Below, in pieces: positions 11,020-24,515 of a stretch of DNA of 64,000 nt. Position 1 is the first letter of the stretch, and each line of letters starts with the position of its first letter. Both the position numbers and the translations under genes were made by a program. Below the pieces are notes generated by a model. That model saw only the letters and a list, made by a program, of their open reading frames with translations, had not been told where the DNA came from and made no database searches. Origin of the DNA: Thermoflexia bacterium (lineage in GTDB: Bacteria > Chloroflexota > Anaerolineae > B4-G1 > SLSP01); assembly GCA_011192175.1 (NCBI GenBank), contig DUEJ01000001.1, positions 3,090 through 67,089 on the forward strand, read 5' to 3'.

Positions 11020-11964
11020 TCAGCGCCGGGGCGGTTGGATATCGATAGCTGCGCCCACATCGTAGGTATCGTACAGTAGGTTGATATCACCGGCGCCCGC
11101 GTAGTAGCCCTCGAAAGTACCGCTGCCGGTAAAGGTATAGCGCACCACGTAACCGCCTTGCAGGGCGACGTAGATGTCGCCGGCCCCGCTTACAGTTCCA
11201 CACTCAGCAGGCAGATTGTCGGCAGCGTAATGGTAATGTGCAGTTGCGATTCCGTTGATATTCTCCTCGCCGACGCGCGTGAAAGCGGGTACGTAAGGCA
11301 GGAAGTCTCCGACTTCGAAAGCTTGCTCCTCAAATTGAGCTGCGGCCACTTCCTCCGGCACCGGTAGCCACGGTTGATTCCCTATTTTTACCCAAGCCCG
11401 GTTGCCGATCCAGATAAATTGGAGCTGATTGGCAGGCAGATACTGCGCGTTCGGCCCTTCCGCACGCAACGTGATCTGGATGGCGGATTGCGGCGGATTG
11501 ACGTCTGCCTCGTAGCTGTACGTCCCGGCTGTTCCTTGCCCCGTAAATTGCACGCTGAGACGTTGGCGAAAGGTTCCCAGATTGCTCAATCCTCCCGCAG
11601 TGGGATCCAACGTGGCAATCATCAACTCTGGGATCTCTGCTGCGGCCAGCTCCAGGGGATCGCTGCCAGCGGGAATCTCGGTAGGAATCTCGACTGGCGC
11701 CTCTGGCGTCTCCGGTTCCACCGCGGCCGGCGCTACGGTAGGCAGCGATGGCGGAACTTCGGGGGGAGTAATGGTCGCTTCCACCTCTTCTGCGGGGGGC
11801 TGCTCCTCCAACGGGAGCGCGGTGGCGCTGGTCGCGGGAGTGCTTTCCGGGGTCTCTTCCGTCTCGGCCAGCGGGCCGTCGACGTCTACTTGACCACTCA
11901 CAGAACACGCCAAACTGCTAATCAAGAGTAAACTTATGATCGCGAAAACGATTTTGCTGCGCAT
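11020..11964 (-). CDS. secreted or lipoprotein-like protein with a Pro/Glu/Thr-rich linker, function unknown
   Basis: N-terminal signal peptide ending in SLAC. A long low-complexity P/E/T/A linker is followed by a globular C-terminal domain. Confidence 0.5.
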   Translation of the reverse strand: MRSKIVFAIISLLLISSLACSVSGQVDVDGPLAETEETPESTPATSATALPLEEQPPAEEVEATITPPEVPPSLPTVAPAAVEPETPEAPVEIPTEIPAGSDPLELAAAEIPELMIATLDPTAGGLSNLGTFRQRLSVQFTGQGTAGTYSYEADVNPPQSAIQITLRAEGPNAQYLPANQLQFIWIGNRAWVKIGNQPWLPVPEEVAAAQFEEQAFEVGDFLPYVPAFTRVGEENINGIATAHYHYAADNLPAECGTVSGAGDIYVALQGGYVVRYTFTGSGTFEGYYAGAGDINLLYDTYDVGAAIDIQPPRR

Positions 11965-12366: not shown

Positions 12367-12735
12367 TCAAGTAAAATATGAATTTACTCGCTGAATTAGG
12401 GTCAACGCTCTGACTGGTTTGGAGAGATAATCGTCACAGCCCGCCGCCAAAAATCGTTCGCGGTCCCCCACCATGGCAGACGCGGTTAAGGCGATTACCG
12501 GGATATTCTGGTAAGCCTCTGAGGCCTTGAGTCGCCCTACGATCTCAAGGCCATCTATACCAGGTAAGCTGATATCTAATAAGACCAGATCAGGAACCAC
12601 ATCTTTGATCATCTGTAAGCCCCCCAAACCATCTTCCGCTTCGTAGATTTGGTACCCCTGCGTGAGCAAGATTTTACGGACAATGCGGCGATTGTGGTAA
12701 TTATCCTCCACGTGGACAATGATGCGATTGTTCAT
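12367..12735 (-). CDS. single-domain response regulator (CheY-like receiver)
   Basis: DLVLLDISLPGIDG and a conserved Lys region. The gene lies 9 bp downstream of the TS-REC-REC gene. Confidence 0.8.
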   Translation of the reverse strand: MNNRIIVHVEDNYHNRRIVRKILLTQGYQIYEAEDGLGGLQMIKDVVPDLVLLDISLPGIDGLEIVGRLKASEAYQNIPVIALTASAMVGDRERFLAAGCDDYLSKPVRALTLIQRVNSYFT

Positions 12736-12744
12736 ATTCGTGAT

Positions 12745-14835
12745 TTACTCCAACAATAAATCTTCGACATAAGTCAGCAGCGCGGCGCGATTCAAAGTGC
12801 TCTTGGGCCAGACGGAATCCACCTGTGCGGATAAGAATTTTTTCTCTGCGATGGTCAACTCTTTGCCCGTGACCACCAATATGAGGAGATCAGCGCCAGC
12901 TGGCTGCGATTGTAGATCTTCGAGGAATTCTAATCCAGTTATATCGGGAAGAACTAAATCTAGCACCACCAACGCCGGCGGATTTTTCTTAATGGCCGCC
13001 CAGGCGTCATTGGCCGAATAGACTTCGGTGACAGCGAAACGCGGTTGAGATTCAAAAAGGCGCCCCATCAATCGCGCCTCCCAGACATTATCCTCGATTA
13101 CCAATATATGTTTATAGTCCCCTACGCCAAAAGACTTGACCAGTTTTTCGTGTTCTTTCAGCGGCGCTTGGTCAAGTAACCGGGCCAATTCATCAGGCTG
13201 GGCGCCTAAGATTCCCGTCACATGTCGGGCCAACTCCCGCGTACTGAAACTGCCTTTCTGCCAGACCGAATCAGTATAACGTTGTAGGTAGGCTTCCTCT
13301 TGCAACGTCAACGATTTTGCAGAGATGACGACAACCGGAATATCTTGGGTGCGTTCATCTGTTTTGAGCTCCGCGAGGATAGAGAACCCATCCATCTCTG
13401 GCAGAGTGAGATCCAGGAGCACCAAATCCGGCTGCCGTTGCTGTACCAGAGCTAGCCCATCCATGCCGTTATAGGCTTGGAAAACGCGATAGTTTTTATA
13501 GCTCTGCAATAGACGCCGGATTAGCCGGCTATCGTGAGGGTTATCGTCAATGACCACTAACGAGGTGATCTGCTCATCTAAGCGTTCTAAAGCCGCCGCC
13601 AAGCCCTCTTTGGGGATGGCGCCTGTCGCTGGCGACGAGGGTGTTTTTAGATGCAGTAAATAGCGGTCTTCTAGGGCGTGTTTCTCGGCGGTGAAGGTAT
13701 GCCCGGAGCAGTTGACCACCACACATTCCCCAGCCTGGATGTATCCCCGCGCGAGCAGCTTCTCCAGACCGGCAAAGGCGACGCTGGCCGCCGGCTCCAT
13801 GGAGATGCCTTCGGTGCGCGCTACCCAGCGCATGGCTCGAAAAGCCTCGCCATCACTTACCGAGACCATCGCGCCGCCATACTGATCCGCTGCGCGCTTG
13901 AGGATCTTGTAAGCCATCCCTGGCGCTCCGGTAGCCAGCACGGTGATTAAACTATCTGGCTGCACAGGCATAGCTGCGTCCAGATTCTGCTCCCACGCTT
14001 GCACCATCGGCGAACAACCGGCGGTCTGCACCACGCCGATCTTGGGAATACGATCAATGATCCCGGCCGCGTACAGCTCGGTAAACCCTTTGAGCACGCC
14101 CAAAGGCCCAATCCCGCCGGAGACGGCTTGTAAATACCAATCAGGGGCACGCCAACCTAGTTGCTCCACGATCTCGAAGGCGATGGTTTTCATGCTCTCT
14201 TTACAAGGAATGGCCTTGGCCCCGCGTTCTAGCGCCAGGTTATGCCGGGCGGCGAAGTCCGCGGCCACTTGTTTGGCTTGATCATAAGTGCCAGAGACTT
14301 TGATCACTTCAATGCCATAGAGCGCCAGCTCCCGCATTTTTTCTACGGGCACGCTGCTGGAGAGGAAAACCCAGAGTTTGATGCCCGCTCTCACCGTATA
14401 AGCCGCGTAGGCCGCCGCAGCGTTGCCGGTGGAAGCCATTACCACCTCAGCGATTCCCTGGTCATAGAGCGCGCTCACGGCAAAGGTCGCCTGCCGATCT
14501 TTGAAGGAGCCGGTCGGTTGTTGCCGCTCATCCTTGATCCAGATGCTGTCGTGCTGGAGCTCCCGTTCCAACCCGACGGCGCGCGTCAAAGGCGTCCAAC
14601 CTTCACCCAAAGTGAAGATATGGAAATCAGCTGGAAAAGGGAGTAATTCCCGATAACGCCAGAGCGTAGCCGGCCTTGTTTTGACCAGCGCCGGCCAATC
14701 AGCCGGCAGGGCCGCGAGATCATAAACTGCATCCATCCACCCCCCGCCGCATTCTGGACAGCTGGCGATGTCAGGATCGGGTGCCATCTCGTGACCACAG
14801 GCTAGACAACGGACTGCTTTCAGTAGAGTTCTCAT
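12745..14835 (-). CDS. threonine-synthase-like fold-type-II PLP enzyme with an N-terminal zinc ribbon, fused to two C-terminal receiver (REC) domains
   Basis: N-terminal CxxC...CPxCG ribbon. PLP-lysine motif GSFKDR. A glycine-rich loop (SGGIGPLG) is present. Two REC cassettes follow (LVVIDDNPHD...DLVLLDLTLPEMDG and ILVIEDNVWE...LVVLDLVLPDITG). Confidence 0.8.
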   Translation of the reverse strand: MRTLLKAVRCLACGHEMAPDPDIASCPECGGGWMDAVYDLAALPADWPALVKTRPATLWRYRELLPFPADFHIFTLGEGWTPLTRAVGLERELQHDSIWIKDERQQPTGSFKDRQATFAVSALYDQGIAEVVMASTGNAAAAYAAYTVRAGIKLWVFLSSSVPVEKMRELALYGIEVIKVSGTYDQAKQVAADFAARHNLALERGAKAIPCKESMKTIAFEIVEQLGWRAPDWYLQAVSGGIGPLGVLKGFTELYAAGIIDRIPKIGVVQTAGCSPMVQAWEQNLDAAMPVQPDSLITVLATGAPGMAYKILKRAADQYGGAMVSVSDGEAFRAMRWVARTEGISMEPAASVAFAGLEKLLARGYIQAGECVVVNCSGHTFTAEKHALEDRYLLHLKTPSSPATGAIPKEGLAAALERLDEQITSLVVIDDNPHDSRLIRRLLQSYKNYRVFQAYNGMDGLALVQQRQPDLVLLDLTLPEMDGFSILAELKTDERTQDIPVVVISAKSLTLQEEAYLQRYTDSVWQKGSFSTRELARHVTGILGAQPDELARLLDQAPLKEHEKLVKSFGVGDYKHILVIEDNVWEARLMGRLFESQPRFAVTEVYSANDAWAAIKKNPPALVVLDLVLPDITGLEFLEDLQSQPAGADLLILVVTGKELTIAEKKFLSAQVDSVWPKSTLNRAALLTYVEDLLLE

Positions 14836-14854
14836 AGTTGGCTTCCCTGAAAAA

Positions 14855-15015
14855 AATTATCTTGCCGCCAAGACGCTAAGAAAATTCTATTTCCTGAAGG
14901 TTGATTTTCAAATCTTTGCGTCTTAGCGGTGAAATTCTTGGTTTTTGCAACAGACTCAAGTTTCAAATCTTGGTGATCTCTGGGCCTCTGCGATGAAGTT
15001 CTTACCTGGCGCTTC
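14855..15015. repeat. dispersed composite intergenic repeat family (copy B)
   Basis: Shares the gacgctaagaaaa...aatctttgcgtcttagcggtgaaat...tttttgcaacagactcaagtttcaaatct motifs with the copies at 1085-1275, 36290-36545 and 62095-62230. Confidence 0.7.
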
Positions 15016-15029
15016 CTCCATCAAATTTT

Positions 15030-16091
15030 TTACTCAATGCTCAACACGCTATAAGCTGTGATCGGATGGCTGAACCCCTTGTAATGGAACGGTGCAAGAG
15101 CGGCGGTCTCTATCTGCCCTTGTAGGTAGAGATTGGTCTCTTCATCAATCAATATCTGCCCCACAGAGGCATGTTCTTGCAAGCGTTTGGCTAAATTGGG
15201 GATGTTTCCGATGACCGTGTAATCCATGAATTGGTTGGTGCCCACATTTCCAACAATGGCTTCCCCCGTGCAGAGGCCAATGCCCAGCCCTAGTTCATGA
15301 AGCTCCGGGTACTCAGTTCTCAGGGCGGCGAAACTCTTTTGCATCATCCAGGCTGAGTGTACCGCGTTTTTGACACTATCCGCACTGGCGAGCGGAGCGC
15401 CGTAAAGGGCCATGATAGCATCCCCCAGATATTTATCTAGGGTGCCCTGATACGTAAAAACCAGCGGGGTTAAATACCCAAAAATCTTATTTAATATCAG
15501 AATAACCTCTCTGGCCTTCCTGCTCTCCGAAAACGGGGTAAAACCTCGAATATCAGCGAAAAGGACACTGACAACGCCCACTTCCCCGCCCAGTTTTAGA
15601 CGTTGTTCTGGATCATCTATGATCTGCAAGGCTACTTCTTTGGAAATATAACGCATCAAGATGCGTTCCAACAGGGCATTCTTAGCTTCTACTTCATCAT
15701 GGAGTTTTTTGATACGGAGCAGGGAACGAACACGCGCTAATAATTCCACGGCATGAAAGGGTTTGGTGAGGAAATCATCGGCCCCGGCTTCTAAGCCTCT
15801 GACCTTATCTTGTAACTCATGTAACGCGGTGAGCATCAAGATGGGGCAAAAGCAGTTTCCTGGGTCGGCGCGCAGCGTGCGCGCTACTTCGAATCCCGTC
15901 ATGCTCGGCATCATCGCATCTAATAGAATCAGATCAGGAGCTGTACGGTTCACTTTTTCCAACGCCTCAGGGCCAGAAAAGGCAGCGATAACCTCGTATC
16001 CTTCTCCGCGCAAGAGCGATTGCACCATCTCATTGCTCTGTCTATTATCATCAACCACCAAGACACGGGAAACATCACCTGAAGAACTCAT
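15030..16091 (-). CDS. response regulator with a class III adenylate/guanylate cyclase (CHD) output domain
   Basis: N-terminal REC (VLVVDDN...DLILLDAMMP). C-terminal cyclase motifs VLFADIRGFT, KYLGDAIMALYGAP and GIGLCTGEAIVGNVG. The start is placed at the ATG with RBS aggaaaagg. Confidence 0.85.
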   Translation of the reverse strand: MSSSGDVSRVLVVDDNRQSNEMVQSLLRGEGYEVIAAFSGPEALEKVNRTAPDLILLDAMMPSMTGFEVARTLRADPGNCFCPILMLTALHELQDKVRGLEAGADDFLTKPFHAVELLARVRSLLRIKKLHDEVEAKNALLERILMRYISKEVALQIIDDPEQRLKLGGEVGVVSVLFADIRGFTPFSESRKAREVILILNKIFGYLTPLVFTYQGTLDKYLGDAIMALYGAPLASADSVKNAVHSAWMMQKSFAALRTEYPELHELGLGIGLCTGEAIVGNVGTNQFMDYTVIGNIPNLAKRLQEHASVGQILIDEETNLYLQGQIETAALAPFHYKGFSHPITAYSVLSIE

Positions 16092-16235
16092 ATACACCTT
16101 TTCCTGTCTCAAGTCAAAAGTCGAAGGTCGCAAATTGGAGGGCGCTACTCAAACTACCGGCCTCGGCTGGTTGCTCTCATCAGACGCCCTCAGTCAGCGA
16201 CTTGAGACGGGTCCCAGCACAGCGGCAGGGAGGCT

Positions 16236-16288
16236 CTTCCTCGCTCCTCTCGCTTTCTCGCCTTCTCGCCCTCTCGCTTTCTCGCCTA
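16236..16288. repeat. CTCGC(T/C)TTCTCGCC tandem octamer/24-mer repeat array (copy 1 of 3)
   Basis: Array cctcgctcctctcgctttctcgccttctcgccctctcgctttctcgcc sits between the sensor-kinase stop and the REC-cyclase start. It is the same family as the arrays at 50619-50667 and 52583-52688. Confidence 0.8.
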
Positions 16289-19200
16289 TGTTTCCAGCGG
16301 TAGCCACACTGTGAAAGTGCTTCCTGCTCCCAATGCACTCTCAACTTCAATCCGGCCGCTGTGCATTTGAATCAACTGTTTGGTGATCGAAAGCCCCAAA
16401 CCGGTGCCCTCCACCTGCCGCGTGCTGGAACCATCTGCCTGACGGAAGCGGTCGAAGATTTTAACTTGATCTGCTGCGCTGATACCAATTCCCGTATCTT
16501 CAACAGCAATGCAGAGCCAGCGACGGCTTTGCTGGTAAGCTCTTACTTTCACGTACCCCGTTTCGGTGAATTTCTCAGAGTTACCCACCAGGTTATTGAG
16601 GATTTGATGTAAGCGCACGCGGTCGGCCCGAATAAGCGGCAGGTCATCTTCTATCTCTATCAGAAACTCGACCGGGCTGGTAGCAAAGAGGCTAGCGTTG
16701 CTGGTTTCTAAATCTGCTAGAACCTGGGCCACGTTCACATTCTCTGCCAGATTTAAGGTCATCTGTCTGGCCTCGATCTTAGCCAGATCCAGGATATCGT
16801 TGATCATGTTCAGTAGGTGTTGCCCATTTTCGTAGATGGCTTGTACATCTTTGAGCGTCTCATCGTCCAGGGAGCCATCTATGCCCATCATCATGATTTC
16901 GGCATAACCGATGATGGAGTTGAGCGGGGTGCGCAGTTCATGGCTCATATTGGCTAAGAACTCGCTCTTGAGACGATCCACCTCCCGCAAGCGCTCGGTG
17001 GTCTGCCGGAGCTCCTCTACAAAGTCAGCGTTCTGCAGCGCGGTGGCGAGTTGTCCCGCCAGCGTGCTAAAGACGTCCAGGTCGGCCTGGGTAAAGTAGT
17101 TGACTTGATCGTGCTGCACATCAAAGACGCCCAACACCTGCTCGCCGGCCACCAATGGCACGGCCACCTCTGATTTAGTATCCGGAAGCAATGGGTTAGG
17201 CATAAAGCGGGGATTGGTCGTCACGTCGTCTACCACCACGATTTCCCTGTTCCGCGCGGCCTGCGCTACCAAACTGGCGGGGTGCGCCAACGGGATGTTA
17301 TGGCCCACTGCTAACATCTTCGCGCCAGGTTCGCCGTACCCGGCCCGTAGTTTGAGCGTTTCCTCTTCTAGGGTGTAAACATGAGCGTAGTAGAGATTAA
17401 AGCGCTCCTTGAGTAGCGGGATCACCGTATTTAACAACTTGTCTGGATCTAAAATCTCGCTCACCTGTCCGGCGATGTCGGCGGCAGTGCGCAGTTGGCG
17501 GGTAAAGCGCTCGCGCTCGGCTTCTGCTTCCTTGCGCTCAGTGATGTCGCGGACGGTGCCGATTAAACCCACCAGTTGACCAGCTTCGTTCTTGATAATC
17601 GTAGTGGTCATTAAAGTGGGGAAGGTCTGGCCATCTCTGGTAACATGTCCAACCTCACCCTGGTGTGAACCCTGCGCCATCGCTTGCTCGTTGAAAGCAA
17701 CCACCTCTTCTTCTAACTGTTCGGCAGTGTGGAAAATGCTCAGGGGTTTGCCCATCAATGTAGTTGGATTATCATAGCCGTGCATCTTGGCCCAGGCGGA
17801 GTTGACAAATAAGATATTGCCTTCCAAATCGATGAGGGCGATGCCATCGCCTACCTGCTCCACGGCACTATTTAACCGCAACAAGTCTTCCTCTCTCGCC
17901 TTGCGCTCAGTAATATCACGGACCATCACCACCATGTGCGTGGGAGTCTCGGTGGCATCGCGGATCATAAAGACGGTGGCGTTGGCCTCAAACACCGTGC
18001 CATCATCTAACCGTTTTTGGAATACATCACCCTGCCAACCCGTAGCCAGGGTTTGGGGTAATACCGTCTCCGCCAGATAGGGCAGATCTTCTTCCCGCCA
18101 GAACTCGGTGCCTAGATGGGTAGTCATTTCGATGTCCCCGTAGAGCTCGCGGGCTGCGGGATTGGCGTACAGTACTTGATTATCTCCGGGATCTACCATC
18201 ACGATCGCATCGTTAGAGGTCTCCGCCATGGTTTGGAAAATCAGGATTTGCTTTTCCGCCCGCTGTTGCGCCTCGAAGGCTTGCGCGTTCTGCAACGCGG
18301 TGGCGAGCTGCCCAGCCAGAATGAGGTAGGTATCCACATCTTTCTCGGCAAAGCGTCCCAACTGATCATCTTGCAGATCCATCACCCCCAGCACCTCGCC
18401 GCCGGCGATCAGCGGCACGGCCAGCTCGGAGCGGGTCTGCGGGAGCAGGGGATTAGGCATGAAATCAGAATCCAACGTGGTATCTGTCACCAATGCCGGC
18501 GCCTGTCCTCGCGCGGCGCGCGCCACCAGGCTCTTCTCGCGTTCCAGGGGGATTTGATGTCCACGCTCGCACAGTACCCGCCCGACCTCCCCGGAGCCGG
18601 CTTGTACTACCAACTGGCGGGTCTCTTTATTCAAGAGGTAAATATGGGCATGATAGAGTCCAAAACGGCTCCGTAGCAACTCCACTACCTGTTGTAAGAG
18701 TTCTTCGGTATCTAGGATAGTACCGATCCGGCGCGCGATCTCGGCTACAGTGCGGAGTTGCGTGGTGAAAACAGTTAAGGATTCTTGTTGCTCGGTAATG
18801 CGTTCCAATAGCTCACTGTTTTCCAGGAGGAAAGAGACTTGATCAACCATCGCTTGGAAGAGCTCTACCGTATGAGAGGTAAAACGTCCCGGCGAGCGGG
18901 CTTGCGCGTCCAGCACTCCGAGTGCCTCGTCCCCGACTCTCAGCGGCACCACCAACTCTGACCGTGTCTCGGGAAGCAAGGGGTTGGGCATAAAGTTGGG
19001 GGCGGTGCTCGTGTCGTCCACCAGCACCGGCTCCCCGGTGTGAATGGCTTTTGTTACCAGTGACGTAGCCTCTAACGGGATCTGGTGTTTTTTCTGGAGC
19101 AACTGCCGCCCGGCGTAACCGGTGGATTGGCGCAGCACCGCCGCGTCCCGTTCCTTGTCTACGAGATAGATTTGGACGTGGTAGAGGTCAAACTGGTCAC

Positions 19201-21388
19201 GCACCAGGTCTACCACCAATCCCAGCAATTCGTCGGGGGTGGTGCGCTCACTGGCAGCAAAGGTGACGCGCCGGCTGGCCTCCAGCTCCCGGGTGCGCTC
19301 GGTCAGGTTCTCGGCCGTCTCGCGCAACGCGCCGACCGTCTCGCGCAGGCGGGTGGTCATGACGCCAAAGGCATTGGTGAGCACGCCGATCTCGTTACTG
19401 CTCGTCGAGTGAGCCACGGTCACGGCCAGATCGCCGCCGGCAATCGCCACCGCGCTCTCCGTCAATCCGGCGATCGGTTTGACCAGCCGCCCGGCGATCA
19501 GCGAGCCGACCCCGGCGGCGACGACAGCCGTCACGCCCAGGAGTACCAGGCTTAGGGTGATGATAAAGGTAGCGATAGAAGCGACGTTGGACAGGGCCTC
19601 GCTCTCGTCAATCTCAGCGATGACAGCCCACACAACTCCCTTTGGATCGTCAGAATCCGGCTCGTCCAGGACGAGCGGTTCCCAGGAGCTCAATACGCGC
19701 ACGCCCCGGTAGTTCTCAATACTCCGCGTGCCGGATTCGCGAGCCAGAGCGGAGAGTGAGGCCTCTGTGCGCACGGGCGTCTCGGTGTTCAAGACGGTGC
19801 TTTCAACCCCCAGTTGATCCAAGAAACGCGAGTTGCTGCGCCACATCTTGTCCAACCCTACCAGGTAGGTCTCGCCGGTCTCGCCCAGCCCGGCGCCCGC
19901 CTGCACAACGGCGCTGATCTGATCCAGCGGCAGGCGTGCAGCCACGATCAGTTCCAACTTATCGCCATGCATCACCGGCGCAGCGACAAAGGCAGCCGGC
20001 GCGTCCTGAATGGGCGCATACCGCGCAAAGTCAGTCATACTGGGCTTTTGTGACTCGACAATCTCCGCCAGCATCTGTCCCAGGTTAGAGTCTTGGTAGG
20101 GGCCGGTCAGTAGGTTAGTATGATAGTCTGGCTCGTGTTTGACGCTGTAAAAGAGAAAGCCGTCCGAGGAAAAGAGGTACAGGTCAGGGTAACCGCGCGT
20201 CTCTGCGTAGCGCTGAAAATAGTCCTGCTCCTCACCCGGTATTTGGGGAATAAGCGCATTTTTCAGTGGCATGCGAGAGACGATGGCCCAGTTCAGGCCC
20301 ACGACACCGACATTCACCGGCGCATAGGAGGCGAGCATCTGTAAGCCCGTGCCTCCGATGAGAATCTCCGTGTCAGTTTCCCCACTCAACGCGTTCCGCA
20401 CGGACTGCGGCGCTATGTCGCTCAGGTCATACCCAATGACGAATTTGCCACCGCCCACGGTGAGCCGGTCGTTGCGAAAGGTGATGCGCCCATCGGGTTC
20501 CTGGGCAACCAGAAAAGTCTCGCCGGTCTCGGGCAGGCCAGTGTGTTGCTGGACGATGGCATTGAGTTTAGTCGCCGGGAGTTGGATGGCGACGACGCCG
20601 ACCGTGCCGGTGATGTTCTCGACCGCGTAGGCGACGAACGCGGCTACCTCGTTGCCCAGTGGCGCGTAGGGCGCAAAATCCGCGAACGCGAGCTCTTGCT
20701 CACTGGCCATCGCGCTCTGGAAAACGCGCCCTAGCCCCGAATCTTTGAGGTCGCCCCGCAGCACGTTCTCTCCCAGGACAGCGGGGCCAGATACGGTGTA
20801 GACGACGTCGCCGCTAGCGGCGATGAGCAAGATGTCGGCAAACCCAAAGTCAGTGTTCGCATTCTGAAAGACAGGGTTGAACTCTTCGTAGGCCGCCGTC
20901 CACTGCGGCCCGCCTGTTCTTCTATCCTCGGCCATAAACGCTTCCTCGAGTTCCCAGATGGCGCGGACTGTGGTGGGGTTATCTTTGAGCGCGTGTACCA
21001 CGCCGAACGTTGTCTGAAAGTAATCCTCGATCCGGCTTTGCTTGGTCTCGCGCGCGGCGGTGACGTGATCGAGCGCGTCGTGGTACAGCGCGTACGTCGA
21101 GTCGGCCAGCACGGTTATGTCATTCTCGCGCGCGGCGAAATAGTCGGCGATCTCGCTGGCCTCGCTTTCGCGAACAGAGGTCAGGTGAGCAAAGGCCTCC
21201 TCCGTCATGGCAGTCCGCACCTGGCGAGAGACAAATATGCCCAGCGTAACCGCGACGATCACCAGGGGCACGACGGCCATCAGGATCGTGATAGCGCTAT
21301 ACTGCACCCGTAGCGACGTGCTAAAACGCTGGAACAGATTACCCTGGCTGGCTTCTTTGGCGGTAGAAGGATTGTTATTCTTTTTCAT
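16286..21388 (-). CDS. giant multi-domain sensor histidine kinase (periplasmic Cache-like region, HAMP, multiple GAF and PAS domains, HisKA, HATPase_c; no receiver)
   Basis: 1700 aa. Two TM segments flank a roughly 580-aa extracytoplasmic region. H-box HELRTPLNSIIGY. C-terminal N/G1/G2 boxes (DTGIGI, GTGLGLSI). Repeated GAF/PAS-like blocks lie between. RBS ggagg precedes the start. Confidence 0.85.
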   Translation of the reverse strand: MKKNNNPSTAKEASQGNLFQRFSTSLRVQYSAITILMAVVPLVIVAVTLGIFVSRQVRTAMTEEAFAHLTSVRESEASEIADYFAARENDITVLADSTYALYHDALDHVTAARETKQSRIEDYFQTTFGVVHALKDNPTTVRAIWELEEAFMAEDRRTGGPQWTAAYEEFNPVFQNANTDFGFADILLIAASGDVVYTVSGPAVLGENVLRGDLKDSGLGRVFQSAMASEQELAFADFAPYAPLGNEVAAFVAYAVENITGTVGVVAIQLPATKLNAIVQQHTGLPETGETFLVAQEPDGRITFRNDRLTVGGGKFVIGYDLSDIAPQSVRNALSGETDTEILIGGTGLQMLASYAPVNVGVVGLNWAIVSRMPLKNALIPQIPGEEQDYFQRYAETRGYPDLYLFSSDGFLFYSVKHEPDYHTNLLTGPYQDSNLGQMLAEIVESQKPSMTDFARYAPIQDAPAAFVAAPVMHGDKLELIVAARLPLDQISAVVQAGAGLGETGETYLVGLDKMWRSNSRFLDQLGVESTVLNTETPVRTEASLSALARESGTRSIENYRGVRVLSSWEPLVLDEPDSDDPKGVVWAVIAEIDESEALSNVASIATFIITLSLVLLGVTAVVAAGVGSLIAGRLVKPIAGLTESAVAIAGGDLAVTVAHSTSSNEIGVLTNAFGVMTTRLRETVGALRETAENLTERTRELEASRRVTFAASERTTPDELLGLVVDLVRDQFDLYHVQIYLVDKERDAAVLRQSTGYAGRQLLQKKHQIPLEATSLVTKAIHTGEPVLVDDTSTAPNFMPNPLLPETRSELVVPLRVGDEALGVLDAQARSPGRFTSHTVELFQAMVDQVSFLLENSELLERITEQQESLTVFTTQLRTVAEIARRIGTILDTEELLQQVVELLRSRFGLYHAHIYLLNKETRQLVVQAGSGEVGRVLCERGHQIPLEREKSLVARAARGQAPALVTDTTLDSDFMPNPLLPQTRSELAVPLIAGGEVLGVMDLQDDQLGRFAEKDVDTYLILAGQLATALQNAQAFEAQQRAEKQILIFQTMAETSNDAIVMVDPGDNQVLYANPAARELYGDIEMTTHLGTEFWREEDLPYLAETVLPQTLATGWQGDVFQKRLDDGTVFEANATVFMIRDATETPTHMVVMVRDITERKAREEDLLRLNSAVEQVGDGIALIDLEGNILFVNSAWAKMHGYDNPTTLMGKPLSIFHTAEQLEEEVVAFNEQAMAQGSHQGEVGHVTRDGQTFPTLMTTTIIKNEAGQLVGLIGTVRDITERKEAEAERERFTRQLRTAADIAGQVSEILDPDKLLNTVIPLLKERFNLYYAHVYTLEEETLKLRAGYGEPGAKMLAVGHNIPLAHPASLVAQAARNREIVVVDDVTTNPRFMPNPLLPDTKSEVAVPLVAGEQVLGVFDVQHDQVNYFTQADLDVFSTLAGQLATALQNADFVEELRQTTERLREVDRLKSEFLANMSHELRTPLNSIIGYAEIMMMGIDGSLDDETLKDVQAIYENGQHLLNMINDILDLAKIEARQMTLNLAENVNVAQVLADLETSNASLFATSPVEFLIEIEDDLPLIRADRVRLHQILNNLVGNSEKFTETGYVKVRAYQQSRRWLCIAVEDTGIGISAADQVKIFDRFRQADGSSTRQVEGTGLGLSITKQLIQMHSGRIEVESALGAGSTFTVWLPLET

Positions 21389-21451: not shown

Positions 21452-21820
21452 TCAAGCGCGCGCTCCCAAACTCAATTCTGCCGGCTGGAACTGAGCCGGT
21501 ATAGTTGGTAATTCCGTAAAAACCGGCAATCGGGCCACAATATCCAGATACCACCACCACTGCGCGAAAGTGACGTTTTGATTATGGCGCCAACTAGCCA
21601 AGTCAGCCATGCGGTCAATAGATTCGTAAAACCGTTTAGCCTGACGGAAAAGATCTTTATCCGCTTTCAAAAGGCGTTGGCGTTGTGCCCCGGTCAGATG
21701 CGGCTCACCGACCTCGATCTCGCTCCGTCGCATCAACATGTGCAAATGTTCCATGCCGCTCACATCGGGGAACTCTACATCAACTTCATACGCAGTCAGC
21801 AGTTCTTCATAGTTTGTCAT
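21452..21820 (-). CDS. hypothetical small protein (122 aa)
   Basis: ORF with consistent codon usage. It overlaps its upstream partner by 14 bp. No family is recognised. Confidence 0.35.
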   Translation of the reverse strand: MTNYEELLTAYEVDVEFPDVSGMEHLHMLMRRSEIEVGEPHLTGAQRQRLLKADKDLFRQAKRFYESIDRMADLASWRHNQNVTFAQWWWYLDIVARLPVFTELPTIPAQFQPAELSLGARA

Positions 21821-22178
21821 ATTCTACCTCACTTAAAGATCCGAATTTTTCAAATCCAGGTTGTTTCAAATAGTCTGGAACGTCAATTACAAACGCGGTT
21901 TCTAGTACCCCTTCCAGGTTAAACATTACCAGCCACAGGCGATTTTGCACTGTAGCTACAACTACCATGTAAGGTGTGCGGTTGTACCAATAAAGATAGA
22001 CTTGCGCCGCTCCATCGTTCAACACCGTCAGAATTATTCGCTCATAGTCTTCAAGTGTAGCGTCATGGGACAAATGTCCTTGCCGTTTGCGCTTGTAGAG
22101 ATGGCGCGCTGCACTGTAAAGTTTCCAATGCACGGCTGATTGTGCTATCCGTATAGCTTGCGATATCCAAGTCGGCAT
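21807..22178 (-). CDS. hypothetical small protein (123 aa)
   Basis: Overlaps the downstream small ORF by 14 bp, suggesting a coupled pair. No family is recognised. Confidence 0.35.
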   Translation of the reverse strand: MPTWISQAIRIAQSAVHWKLYSAARHLYKRKRQGHLSHDATLEDYERIILTVLNDGAAQVYLYWYNRTPYMVVVATVQNRLWLVMFNLEGVLETAFVIDVPDYLKQPGFEKFGSLSEVEYDKL

Positions 22179-22261: not shown

Positions 22262-23047
22262 TTACTCCACATCAGACAAACCATATTTGTTGAACAGTCT
22301 CTGCCCAGCGTCTGAGGCAACATACGCCATGAACTTGCGGGCCAGTTCGGGAGATTCAGATGTGCTGAGCAGTCCCAGGACGAGTTTTTTCTTGACGGCG
22401 TATTCTGCGCTGATGGGCAAGGCGTCAACGTAGGGTGCGTTTTCGGGCCAGGTGGAAGTCGCGTACCAGTTGACGATCAGATCGGCCTCGCCATTTTTGA
22501 GTGCGTCCGTCAACTCTGTCGCATTTGCTGCCAGACTCTGGACGTTGCCCATCGCCTGATCCAAAATACCCATGTTGGCGAGTATCTTTTGCGTCTCTCT
22601 GCCCACACTCGCTGTATCTGGGTCAGCCAGGAACAGAACATAATCTTCATTAGTGAAGCTGGTGGAATCCGCTGTAATCCCTAGTGGATTGCCCTCGGCT
22701 ACTATCATCGCGGCCTTGTTATAGCCCACGAGGACCGTTTCGATGACCAGGTCTTGCGCAAGACAAGTCACGATGTAAGAGTCGTCCCCCGGCAGATATA
22801 GATCTCCGACCCGGTCGGTCTGAATCGTTTCCAACAAATTCCCCGAACCGCCGGCTTTAATAGTTATGGTGCAGTTTTCCTCTTTCTCAATGATAGTGGC
22901 GATCTCTTCCATTGGCTGCATCATCGTTACGCCGCAGTAGATGAGGAGTTCTCTTTTCTCGGCTGTGGCGGGTTGTTGATCGCAACCCGCTAGTAACGTG
23001 GCCGCGCTCATCAATAATACCACTACTAGAATTGTATACCGTTTCAT
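22262..23047 (-). CDS. ModA-like periplasmic molybdate/tungstate-binding lipoprotein
   Basis: Lipoprotein signal LLAGC. ModA-like PBP fold motifs (IKAGGSGNLLETI, LVIETVLVGYN). No cognate permease or ATPase is adjacent. Confidence 0.65.
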   Translation of the reverse strand: MKRYTILVVVLLMSAATLLAGCDQQPATAEKRELLIYCGVTMMQPMEEIATIIEKEENCTITIKAGGSGNLLETIQTDRVGDLYLPGDDSYIVTCLAQDLVIETVLVGYNKAAMIVAEGNPLGITADSTSFTNEDYVLFLADPDTASVGRETQKILANMGILDQAMGNVQSLAANATELTDALKNGEADLIVNWYATSTWPENAPYVDALPISAEYAVKKKLVLGLLSTSESPELARKFMAYVASDAGQRLFNKYGLSDVE

Positions 23048-23088: not shown

Positions 23089-23460
23089 TTAATCGTGCTG
23101 TTGAGTTAGCCGCTGGCAGAATGTGACCAGCGTGGGAATGGATACCGGTTTTTCCAGGTATAAATCCACCCCGATCTCCAAACAGCTCTCGTGATAACTG
23201 GCGTCAGCGGAGACCACGATGATTTTAGCGCCCGCTTGGTGCAGTTGAGGAGTTACTTGTTGTAGTAGGGGGATTGCGCGCTCGTGTCCTAAATGGATAT
23301 CGCAGAGAAAAAGAGCGAACGCTTCTCGTGCCAAGAGTTCTTGGGCCTCGGATATCGTGCTGACAACTGTGACCCGAAAGCCGAAGTTTCGCAACGCCTT
23401 GTAGTAGAGGCGTTGAATATCGGCTTCATCTTCGGCGATTAGAATTGCAGGAGGAACCAC
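23089..23460 (-). CDS. single-domain response regulator receiver
   Basis: ILIAEDEADI...FLCDIHLGHE receiver motifs. 123 aa. Confidence 0.7.
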   Translation of the reverse strand: MVPPAILIAEDEADIQRLYYKALRNFGFRVTVVSTISEAQELLAREAFALFLCDIHLGHERAIPLLQQVTPQLHQAGAKIIVVSADASYHESCLEIGVDLYLEKPVSIPTLVTFCQRLTQQHD

Positions 23461-23888
23461 TGAATAAATCCTCTCTCATTTGCGACTTATAGCTCTTCTG
23501 GAATTCGCGGGGTCGAGTTAAAATTAACCCCGACTTATCAAAGCAACTCTACCTTATAGCTAAAAAGTGTGATTGTCAAATGCCTACCTAAAATTTATAC
23601 ACTCTCAAAATAGAAGCGTTAATAGAGTTAGGTTGGATTCTAACCCTTTGTTTGGTTAAAGTCAAGTAAGAATTATTACAGAATAGTAACGGGTAAAGAA
23701 ATATCGGATTTGCATCTAGCGACTTTGTAGTTGCCCTACAGGCTTAGAAAATCCCCGCGCTACAGGCTGCATCCAGCTTGCAGCCTGTCTAGATGGTTGA
23801 CAAATTTTGGTAGTTGTGTATACTCATCGCTGCTAACGGAATGGGCAACCCCTTTGACCCGTCTAAGCTGCGTGTTATAATAGGCGTG

Positions 23889-23960
23889 CGCCGACGTAGC
23901 TCAACGGATGAGCTTCCGCCTTGTAAGCGGAGGGGTGTGGGTTCGATTCCCACCGTCGGC
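23889..23960 (+). tRNA. tRNA-Thr (anticodon TGT)
   Basis: Cloverleaf: acceptor gccgacg/cgtcggc, T-arm gggttcgattccc, anticodon loop cttgtaa. Confidence 0.85.
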
Positions 23961-23966
23961 TTTTGG

Positions 23967-24049
23967 GGGGCAGATACCCTAGTGGACAAAGGGGGCTGAC
24001 TGTAAATCAGCTGGCAACGCCTTCGGTGGTTCGAATCCGCCTCTGCCCA
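23967..24049 (+). tRNA. tRNA-Tyr (anticodon GTA), class II with a long variable arm
   Basis: Acceptor gggcaga/tctgccc, anticodon loop ctgtaaa, long variable arm, T-arm ggttcgaatcc. Confidence 0.85.
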
Positions 24050-24060
24050 TCTTTTTTTAT

Positions 24061-24133
24061 GCCCATGTAGCTCAGTTGGTAGAGCACATTCTTGGTAAGA
24101 ATGGGGTCCTCGGTTCAAATCCGAGCATGGGCT
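24061..24133 (+). tRNA. tRNA-Thr (anticodon GGT)
   Basis: Acceptor gcccatg/catgggc, D-arm tagctcagttggtagagc, anticodon loop ttggtaa, T-arm ggttcaaatcc. Confidence 0.85.
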
Positions 24134-24182
24134 TGGGGAATTTGGCTCCTTCAGGAAATCTACAGAGTATATAGAGGTATCA

Positions 24183-24352
24183 TGGCTAAAAAGAAAAAAT
24201 CTGCTAGGCCCAGCATTACACTCGCGTGTACGGTGTGCAAGGAACAGAACTATCTGACCGAGAAGAATCGCCATAATGATCGTGGTCGTTTGGAATTAAA
24301 ACGGTATTGCTCACGCTGCCGACAGCATACTTTGCACCGCGAAACTAAATAG
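24183..24352 (+). CDS. rpmG: 50S ribosomal protein L33
   Basis: MAKKKK...CTVCKEQNY...[21 protein letters not shown] with a Cys4 zinc ribbon, 56 aa. RBS agaggt. The longer ORF-track start at 24092 overlaps the tRNA. Confidence 0.85.
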
Positions 24353-24365
24353 TTAGTTAGATCGT

Positions 24366-24439
24366 AGGCGAGTAGCTCAATTAGGGAGAGCAACGGTCTC
24401 CAAAACCGTAGGTTACGGGTTCAATTCCTGTCTCGCCTG
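24366..24439 (+). tRNA. tRNA-Trp (anticodon CCA)
   Basis: Acceptor aggcgag/ctcgcct, anticodon loop ctccaaa, T-arm gggttcaattcc. Confidence 0.85.
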
Positions 24440-24515
24440 CCTATTCACTGAGACACCGTCAATTAAAGACGGTGTCTCTATACTGTAAGGGGATTTGAGC
24501 GCACGGAGGATAGAG

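Follow-up and report, generated by a model that had tools for sequence, protein, structure and literature searches.

The window analyzed here (64,000 bp of contig DUEJ01000001.1 from a Thermoflexia bacterium, phylum Chloroflexota) carries on its minus strand a block of genes predicted to encode a membrane sensor histidine kinase, a receiver (REC)-adenylate cyclase, a threonine synthase (ThrC)-like pyridoxal phosphate (PLP) protein with two C-terminal REC domains (ThrC-REC-REC), and stand-alone REC proteins of 122 and 123 amino acids (aa) (REC122 and REC123). These genes probably represent a conserved, operon-like branched two-component module specific to Chloroflexota, in which one kinase would serve many receivers, with cyclic AMP (cAMP) and a phosphorylation-controlled PLP enzyme as outputs. 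The observations behind this reading are the domain composition of the encoded proteins, their intact catalytic and phospho-acceptor residues, the order of the genes across related loci, and the separation of the PLP domain from true ThrC. The ThrC-REC-REC protein is the hallmark of the module. The invariant unit is the pair formed by its gene and the adjoining REC gene, because the locus that diverges most has this pair by itself; a kinase almost always accompanies the pair, and the cyclase is a frequent addition.

Conservation of gene order in Chloroflexota

Full-length homologs of ThrC-REC-REC formed more than 120 clusters (clustered at 90% identity) at approximately 60 to 90% identity. All members with a named source were from Chloroflexota, listed as Anaerolineae, Thermoflexales, Ardenticatenaceae, or Chloroflexota metagenome-assembled genomes (MAGs), and the homologs have been named only automatically, as “pyridoxal-phosphate dependent enzyme” or “threonine synthase.” A genome scan recovered 26 loci, all in Chloroflexota, one of which belonged to a “Candidatus Aquidulcis” MAG (class Limnocylindria). 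A cyanobacterial origin, suggested by NCBIfam matches to HrmK, NblS, and RpaB, was rejected, as the related loci and named homologs were all from Chloroflexota.

Gene order was counted by tblastn of the window proteins against the related loci, 23 of which had sufficient flanking sequence; gene starts at the junctions were extrapolated from the alignments. The kinase core lay directly upstream in 22 of 23 loci, and the REC-cyclase was found between the kinase and ThrC-REC-REC genes in 15 of 23. A stand-alone REC lay directly downstream of the ThrC-REC-REC gene in all 23 loci, and a second one was present in 18 of 22. REC122, which had been described as an orphan receiver, is thus misnamed; its gene invariably accompanies that of ThrC-REC-REC, even in the most divergent locus (L019), where the pair occurs alone among unrelated genes with no kinase. 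Homologs of REC123 were found upstream of the kinase in loci L003 and L011. Independent gene calls on long contigs gave the same order, with kinases of 1,109 to more than 3,500 aa. The kinase core (last GAF, HisKA, and HATPase domains) was 44 to 65% identical across loci and the sensor part varied, with many kinase relatives having no membrane and dCache part.

Gene junctions in the related loci were frequently overlapping or abutting. The gap between the ThrC-REC-REC and REC genes ranged from −10 to +77 bp over the 23 loci (−10 to +38 bp in 22 of them), the cyclase-ThrC junction, −4 bp in three loci, commonly fell between −4 and +37 bp, and a kinase-ThrC junction of −3 bp occurred, with stop/start overlaps at several junctions. 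The shared order in Chloroflexota MAGs and these overlapping or abutting genes support the view that the cluster genes behave as one functional unit. An alternative is that they are neighbors without a shared pathway, with the receivers served by other kinases and adjacency a by-product of signaling-rich Chloroflexota genomes. This would accommodate the 194-bp gaps flanking the cyclase gene in the window and the promoter-like site before its ThrC-REC-REC gene, the kinase-less pair in L019, and the further kinases and regulators found near related loci. It is disfavored by the synteny, in that the order was kept in 22 of 23 loci at ThrC-REC-REC identities of 53 to 72% and with overlapping stop and start codons, and by the conservation of the kinase core while the sensor varies, as expected if the partnership of the core is preserved. 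Mere adjacency is therefore considered very improbable.

The contents of the clusters varied around this framework. The slot between the kinase and ThrC-REC-REC genes held the cyclase, a methyltransferase, or nothing; in locus L035 (8720 to 9982), it was occupied by an S-adenosylmethionine-dependent (SAM)-methyltransferase/VTT-domain protein. ThrC-REC-REC was followed by one REC or two and, in many cases, by a GNAT acetyltransferase of approximately 300 aa (L032, 12899 to 13813; L034, 13050 to 13937; L035, 14349 to 15221), which was absent from the window. A REC-REC protein of approximately 270 aa was encoded directly upstream of the kinase in L032 (210 to 1019), L035 (954 to 1775), and L036 (4734 to 5564), and by way of this protein some clusters reached seven receiver domains per kinase.

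ThrC-like PLP protein

The 696-aa ThrC-REC-REC protein consists of an N-terminal CxxC...CxxC zinc ribbon and PALP domain (Pfam; together aa 1 to 380), a linker, REC1 (acceptor Asp475), a second linker, and REC2 (Asp626). AlphaFold2 (AF2) modeling gave three well-folded domains and disordered linkers at aa 378 to 423 and 553 to 572. The first-pass annotation had called the protein threonine synthase-like, and this description held: the best NCBIfam match of the PLP domain was threonine synthase PRK08197, and its closest solved relatives by both sequence and fold were true ThrC enzymes (PDB E value of approximately 1e-47; Foldseek TM-target scores of 0.80 to 0.85). The PLP-lysine motif TGSFKDR (PLP Lys112) was invariant in 120 family sequences.

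Likeness to ThrC did not extend to family membership. ThrC-REC-REC scored 158.0 on TIGR00260 (cutoff, 167.1) and 259.1 on PRK08197 (cutoff, 303) and fell below the cutoff of every other ThrC model, whereas control zinc-ribbon proteins with canonical motifs scored 285 to 337 on TIGR00260. When the 120 family sequences were compared with true ThrC, four canonical motifs were found to be invariantly replaced: STGNTS by STGNAA, NSVNPxRIEGQKT by AKAIPxK-ESMKT, VGNAGN by VSGGIG (SGGIGP), and TxTGN by NCSGH. The replaced residues presumably include ligands of the substrate phosphate in T. thermophilus ThrC structures. As a candidate ThrC equivalog, the protein therefore appears to have the fold and the PLP lysine but neither the curated score nor the canonical motifs, and its substrate is probably not O-phosphohomoserine.

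Sequence comparison places the PLP domain in a clade separate from true ThrC. According to an exhaustive search, this clade also holds one-receiver forms of approximately 560 aa and unfused proteins of 377 to 435 aa at 44 to 49% identity, and an SGGxGP motif is common to its fused, one-receiver, and unfused members; proteins with canonical motifs were only approximately 35% identical. One unfused relative barely passed the ThrC cutoffs. The neighbors of the unfused relative P0125 were considered as a clue to the chemistry and set aside, being uninformative housekeeping genes.

These comparisons bear on the alternative that the fused protein is a housekeeping threonine synthase under two-component control, which would couple signals to threonine supply. 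Its best NCBIfam and PDB matches and its automatic annotation agree with such a role, as does the unfused relative just above the cutoffs, which lies among housekeeping genes. No second thrC was found in the window or in the fetched loci, which make up a small part of each genome. The alternative is nevertheless disfavored because the tests for ThrC membership failed: the scores lay below both relevant cutoffs (TIGR00260 and PRK08197) and far from the canonical-motif controls, the canonical motifs were invariantly replaced, and canonical-motif proteins were distant in sequence. A housekeeping role is accordingly judged improbable. The direct link to amino acid metabolism drawn in the first-pass annotation is at most tentative, given the failed cutoffs and the different invariant residues at the substrate-phosphate and PLP motif positions. 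Synthase and deaminase activities may occur together in lineages of ThrC (PMC12172450), so that more than one reaction is conceivable for the PLP domain.

The chemistry of the PLP domain and the direction of its regulation are predictions from sequence. Tentatively, and with slightly less than even expectation, ThrC-REC-REC may constitute a new enzymatic output class of response regulators in which PLP-dependent turnover of an amino acid-derived compound would be switched by aspartyl phosphorylation, accompanied by a dedicated REC and mostly by a REC-cyclase. On this reading, one Chloroflexota kinase would drive small-molecule and cAMP outputs in parallel without a transcription factor.

Receiver domains

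Pfam (Response_reg, E values of 1e-11 to 1e-67) confirmed four receiver domains distributed over the three proteins downstream of the kinase, as the first-pass annotation had proposed, with matches too strong to be due to chance. A fifth receiver, REC123 (23089 to 23460), lies outside the four genes considered there. All five receivers in the window carry the residue set D/E12-D13-D57-T/S87-K109 (CheY numbering); in REC123, the phospho-acceptor set is present as E/D-D-S-K. The D/T/K residues were invariant in 16 of 16 orthologs of the cyclase REC and in 22 of 22 orthologs of REC122. Among 37 family sequences of ThrC-REC-REC, the acceptor D475 was invariant and D626 was conserved in at least 90%.

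An aromatic switch residue at position 106 and a K109-P110 cis-peptide are typical of receivers, although not strictly defining. Both features were present in the cyclase REC, REC122, and REC123, whereas REC1 and REC2 of the ThrC-like protein have Val106 and have K-G and K-S, respectively, in place of K109-P110.

Sensor kinase

The N-terminal part of the kinase comprises a first transmembrane segment (approximately aa 31 to 55), a tandem dCache region (57 to 605), a second transmembrane segment, and a HAMP domain (630 to 683). These are followed by GAF (718 to 852), GAF (approximately 880 to 1025), PAS (approximately 1040 to 1160), PAS (1171 to 1287), and GAF (1314 to 1452) domains and by C-terminal HisKA (1474 to 1540; E value, 6.7e-21) and HATPase_c (1589 to 1699; 2.7e-28) domains. 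The predicted phospho-accepting His1483 is encoded at nucleotides 16940 to 16942, in the motif NMSHELRTPLN. This H-box histidine was invariant in 23 of 23 kinase orthologs, and the N, G1, and G2 boxes (NNLVGN..KFT, DTGIGI, and GTGLGLS) were conserved in all 23. By these sequence features, the protein is predicted to be a class I (HisKA/HATPase_c) sensor histidine kinase. Pfam found no Response_reg domain in it, in agreement with the first-pass annotation, and in none of the related loci did tblastn show a receiver at the C terminus of the kinase.

The sensory inputs proposed earlier were also borne out. Three GAF and two PAS domains were identified by Pfam as intracellular inputs, and the extracytoplasmic “Cache-like” input was identified as dCache by Pfam, AF2, and Foldseek, more precisely as two tandem dCache units. 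The dCache_1 model scored 47.3 bits on the full kinase (cutoff, 45), 29.5 bits on the distal half of the module alone, and gave no match to the proximal half. The AF2 model of the module (pLDDT, 91.7; pTM, 0.82) shows a long helical stalk and four PAS-like modules, and the consensus sequence reveals an internal duplication. The best Foldseek matches were the dCache domains of PctA, CtaA, Tlp3, PscC, and DctB (TM-target scores of 0.7 to 0.74), each of which covers approximately half of the model. The periplasmic region of the kinase thus has the same dCache fold as the sensors PctA, CtaA, Tlp3, and DctB, but, in contrast to the solved examples, it has two tandem units on a long helical stalk. 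The top fold matches are amino acid chemoreceptors, from which no claim about the ligand is drawn. Chemoreceptors, GGDEF proteins, and kinases from many phyla, among them Proteobacteria, Desulfobacterota, and Planctomycetes, begin with a region that matches the module over its whole length at 35 to 42% identity. The module is thus a portable cassette for sensing, approximately twice as large as the dCache domains of known structure.

The kinase length of 1,700 aa given by the first-pass annotation is that of the ORF in the window, but it depends on the assembly. Two public contigs that are 99.7 to 99.8% identical to the window (L029 and L030) break inside the kinase gene, at a PAS-encoding 415-bp exact direct repeat corresponding to window positions 17899 to 18313 (minus strand; blastn). 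L029 (5474 to 6937) has a 100-N scaffold gap at this repeat, and L030 (1 to 534) begins just past the break. Short-read assemblies break at this place. Each of the two contigs contains 534 bp that code for one more GAF domain, bordered by a further exact copy of the repeat. Merging the 55-nucleotide overlap of L029 and L030 yields an in-frame insertion of 894 bp, which corresponds to one GAF-PAS module. The native kinase may therefore be approximately 1,998 aa long, and the kinase in the window is probably a repeat-collapsed or deleted form lacking this module.

REC-adenylate cyclase

The assignment of the cyclase as a REC-adenylate cyclase was upheld by Pfam (Response_reg and Guanylate_cyc) and by its class IIIb residues. 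The ORF extends from 15030 to 16133 (367 aa) if read from a TTG codon. The most likely start is the ATG at 16091, which gives 353 aa and agrees with public gene calls and with an upstream sequence resembling a ribosome-binding site (RBS), GGAAAAGG. The protein consists of a REC domain resembling PleD D1 (acceptor Asp58; best PDB match, PleD, 1.6e-41), a helical linker, and a cyclase domain that aligns with CyaB (3r5g) and CyaC (1wc0), both class IIIb adenylate cyclases. The motifs FADIRGF, GDAIM, and GNIPNLAKR contain the metal-binding Asp residues and the transition-state Asn and Arg. The adenine-specifying Lys (DKYLGD) and the Thr replacing Asp (DYTVIG) are as in 3r5g and 1wc0, whereas the guanylate cyclase Cya2 (2w01) has Glu in place of the Lys. 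The catalytic D/D/K/T/N/R residues were invariant in 16 of 16 orthologs, and the protein is predicted from these features to be a class III, subclass IIIb adenylate cyclase.

An alpha/beta-hydrolase fused to a cyclic nucleotide-binding domain (463 aa) is encoded on the plus strand at 1388 to 2779, approximately 10 kb from the cyclase gene, and is a possible cAMP-responsive effector.

Proposed signaling scheme

In the proposed module, the membrane kinase would integrate an extracytoplasmic ligand, sensed by the tandem dCache region and possibly by a ModA-like binding protein encoded nearby, with intracellular cues sensed by its GAF and PAS domains. It would autophosphorylate on His1483 and hand the phosphoryl group directly to several of the receivers encoded beside it; this phosphotransfer, and the pairing of kinase and receivers, is predicted from domain content and gene order. 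The active sites of class III cyclases lie where the two subunits of the dimer meet, and the REC-cyclase would probably be turned on by phosphorylation-driven dimerization via its helical linker, with cAMP as the output. Whether its two C-terminal receivers are phosphorylated would govern the activity of the ThrC-like PLP enzyme, and the stand-alone receivers, one or two in number, would compete for phosphoryl groups, as sinks or modulators that shape the timing and the split between branches.

The first-pass annotation had described a single branched phosphorelay. The branched arrangement of one kinase and many receivers was retained, and its outputs, judged from Pfam domains, are indeed a cyclase and a PLP enzyme rather than DNA-binding domains. 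A strict His-Asp-His-Asp phosphorelay was rejected, because no histidine phosphotransfer (HPt) domain was detected in any of the eight block proteins (Pfam, E ≤ 0.01) and the kinase has no fused receiver.

Several features weigh against the module as proposed. REC1 and REC2 are without the aromatic switch residue and Pro110 and may signal in a nonclassical manner, and the AF2 model of ThrC-REC-REC gave no confident interdomain geometry (pTM, 0.58). The kinase-less pair in L019 suggests that the cognate kinase of ThrC-REC-REC need not be a neighbor. The two 194-bp junctions in the window, one with a promoter-like site, suggest that there may be more than one promoter. Finally, the enzyme domain is N terminal to the receivers, the reverse of most response regulators, an order that also fits an input role.

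Such an input role is the most substantial of the alternatives. The ThrC-like domain would bind or slowly turn over a (phospho-)amino acid and thereby gate phosphoryl handling by REC1 and REC2; ThrC-REC-REC would then act as a phosphate sink or node under metabolite control and adjust the flow to the cyclase and the stand-alone receivers. An enzyme-like domain placed first and receivers placed last recall sensor-first proteins such as hybrid kinases; tandem fused receivers with a third always adjoining would suit phosphate buffering; the fused receivers have Val106 and no Pro110 and so are without the usual output-coupling residues; and apart from the optional cyclase there is no other obvious output in the cluster. 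The invariance of the PLP lysine and of many active-site motifs in 120 sequences is more typical of a working catalyst, although a PLP-dependent sensor would keep active-site motifs too. The unfused relatives in the clade are plain enzyme-sized proteins among housekeeping genes, and no fold-type II PLP domain is known to act as a sensor, both of which count against an input role. This alternative is considered unlikely, with a small but real chance of being correct, and a phosphorylation-controlled enzyme remains the preferred reading of ThrC-REC-REC.

Comparison with known systems

DivJ/PleC and DivK/PleD of Caulobacter form a known branched two-component pathway. The Chloroflexota module resembles it in that a non-hybrid kinase would serve both a single-domain receiver and a regulator that is a nucleotide second-messenger enzyme. 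In addition, the REC of the window cyclase is nearest to PleD D1 among solved structures, and a tandem-receiver architecture recurs. The systems differ in their messengers, cAMP from a class III cyclase in the window and cyclic di-GMP from GGDEF in PleD. PleD D2 is not known to keep an acceptor Asp, whereas the tandem receivers in the window are C terminal to a PLP enzyme and both have an acceptor Asp. The Chloroflexota clusters have three to seven receiver domains each.

Dictyostelium ACR is a receiver-regulated class III adenylate cyclase (PMC3009899). Like ACR and CyaC of Spirulina and Anabaena, the window protein couples a receiver to a class III cyclase, and it has the class IIIb Lys/Thr pair in common with CyaC (1wc0) and Pseudomonas aeruginosa CyaB (3r5g). 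In CyaC and ACR, a single polypeptide includes the kinase along with two receivers, whereas the REC-cyclase of the window would use a separate kinase and is optional in the clusters.

ThrC-REC-REC shares fold type II and an identical TGSFKDR motif with ThrC enzymes (TIGR00260 and PRK08197; 2zsj, 2d1f, and 1uim), and PRK08197-type enzymes have an N-terminal zinc ribbon as well. It differs from them in scoring below the cutoffs, in invariant substitutions in the Asn-loop, the NPxR(I/L)EGQKT segment, and the Gly-rich PLP-phosphate loop, in its fusion to two receivers, and in its place in a distinct clade, some members of which are unfused. Orn/Lys/Arg decarboxylases such as Rv2531c are PLP enzymes whose oligomeric state is influenced by a receiver-fold domain at the N terminus (PMC12329521). 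They resemble ThrC-REC-REC in the physical fusion of a PLP-dependent enzyme to a receiver fold. They are, however, type I decarboxylases, in contrast to the type II ThrC-like domain in the window, and their single N-terminal receiver fold is not described as a two-component phospho-acceptor, whereas the window protein has two receivers with the full acceptor set and is encoded beside a kinase.

In full-text literature searches, no account of receivers fused to an enzyme of the ThrC fold was found. Receiver-cyclase proteins, branched pathways, and PLP decarboxylases with a receiver fold are already known; the fusion of a ThrC-like domain to receivers, for which no such description was found, appears to be new.

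Two-component outputs have nearly always been described as DNA-binding proteins or one of a few enzymes (CheB, GGDEF/EAL proteins, phosphatases, and cyclases). Here, a large family that has been annotated only automatically combines a ThrC-fold PLP enzyme with two intact receivers, and its genes are locked in order with those for a kinase and a partner receiver. Were the PLP enzyme under the control of phosphorylation, it would represent a new output chemistry for bacterial signaling and would directly link environmental sensing to amino acid-type metabolism in Chloroflexota. Members of this phylum are abundant in sediments, digesters, and hot springs and are rarely tractable experimentally. 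Phosphotransfer profiling and enzyme assays would be feasible because the proteins are soluble and modular.

Layout of the block and neighboring genes

The four ORFs of the first-pass annotation had exact coordinates, all on the minus strand, and Pfam annotation agreed with its domain calls (Table 1). The proposed four-gene cluster is present, but the co-directional block runs on upstream as far as REC123, with gaps of 63, −14, 83, and 41 bp from the kinase to REC123. The genes had been called tightly spaced, which applies to the ThrC-REC-REC and REC122 genes (9 bp) but not to the kinase-cyclase and cyclase-ThrC junctions.

Table 1. Features of the signaling block, with positions in the window
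Feature	Positions	Strand	Basis or remark
Stand-alone REC (REC122; 122 aa, acceptor Asp54)	12367-12735	minus	Pfam Response_reg, 5e-26
Zn-ribbon + ThrC-like PLP domain + REC1 + REC2 (696 aa)	12745-14835	minus	Pfam, NCBIfam
Cyclase-ThrC spacer, 194 bp	14836-15029	minus	Promoter-like site within
REC-adenylate cyclase (353 aa)	15030-16091	minus	Pfam Response_reg + Guanylate_cyc
Kinase-cyclase spacer, 194 bp	16092-16285	minus	Tandem repeat and RBS-like GGAAAAGG
Membrane sensor histidine kinase (1,700 aa in window)	16286-21388	minus	Pfam
Extracytoplasmic sensor module (kinase aa 57-605, approximately 545 aa)	19574-21220	minus	AF2, Foldseek
Two small hypothetical genes (123 and 122 aa), 14-bp overlap	21452-22178	minus	Between binding protein and kinase
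ModA-like periplasmic solute-binding lipoprotein (261 aa)	22262-23047	minus	Pfam SBP_bac_11, 2.7e-48
Stand-alone REC (REC123; 123 aa), first gene of co-directional block	23089-23460	minus	Pfam Response_reg, 4e-14

A consensus scan identified a promoter-like site (TTGAAA-16-TAGAAT, 10 of 12 matches) at 14911 to 14884 in the cyclase-ThrC spacer. Promoter-like sites were also present in the AT-rich region preceding REC123, including TTGACT-17-TAGAAT at 23665 to 23637. No terminator-like sites were found in either 194-bp spacer between the kinase, cyclase, and ThrC-REC-REC genes. Cotranscription of the block in this organism is predicted from gene order and spacing but is uncertain in the window because of the promoter-like site in the gap before the ThrC-REC-REC gene. 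A purine-rich tandem repeat at 16236 to 16287 (Tandem Repeats Finder; an 8-nucleotide unit in approximately 6 copies, also read as two copies of a 24-nucleotide unit) adjoins the kinase stop codon inside the kinase-cyclase spacer.

The ModA-like protein, in which a signal peptide and a Cys lipobox are readable, scored 52.4 bits on TIGR01256 (modA), below the cutoff of 62.5. Its gene sits between REC123 and the kinase without ABC permease or ATPase genes nearby, and, by tblastn of the related loci, only the lineage of the window has it beside the kinase. The protein may be a periplasmic cosensor for the kinase. The hypothetical proteins of 123 and 122 aa had no Pfam or NCBIfam match; they were considered as hidden HPt or signaling proteins and rejected for want of a family match and with few homologs. 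The 123-aa protein had only 6 homolog clusters among 5.8 billion proteins, and its exact match was from a “Thermoflexia bacterium” MAG.

A minus-strand ORF of 161 aa (23789 to 24274) was rejected as a block member, being a spurious call that overlies plus-strand tRNA genes. The four tRNA genes there (23890 to 24441; Thr-TGT, Tyr-GTA, Thr-GGT, and Trp-CCA) bound the signaling block. Downstream of REC122, after a gap of 402 bp, lies a gene for a secreted Pro/Glu-rich protein of 314 aa (11020 to 11964).

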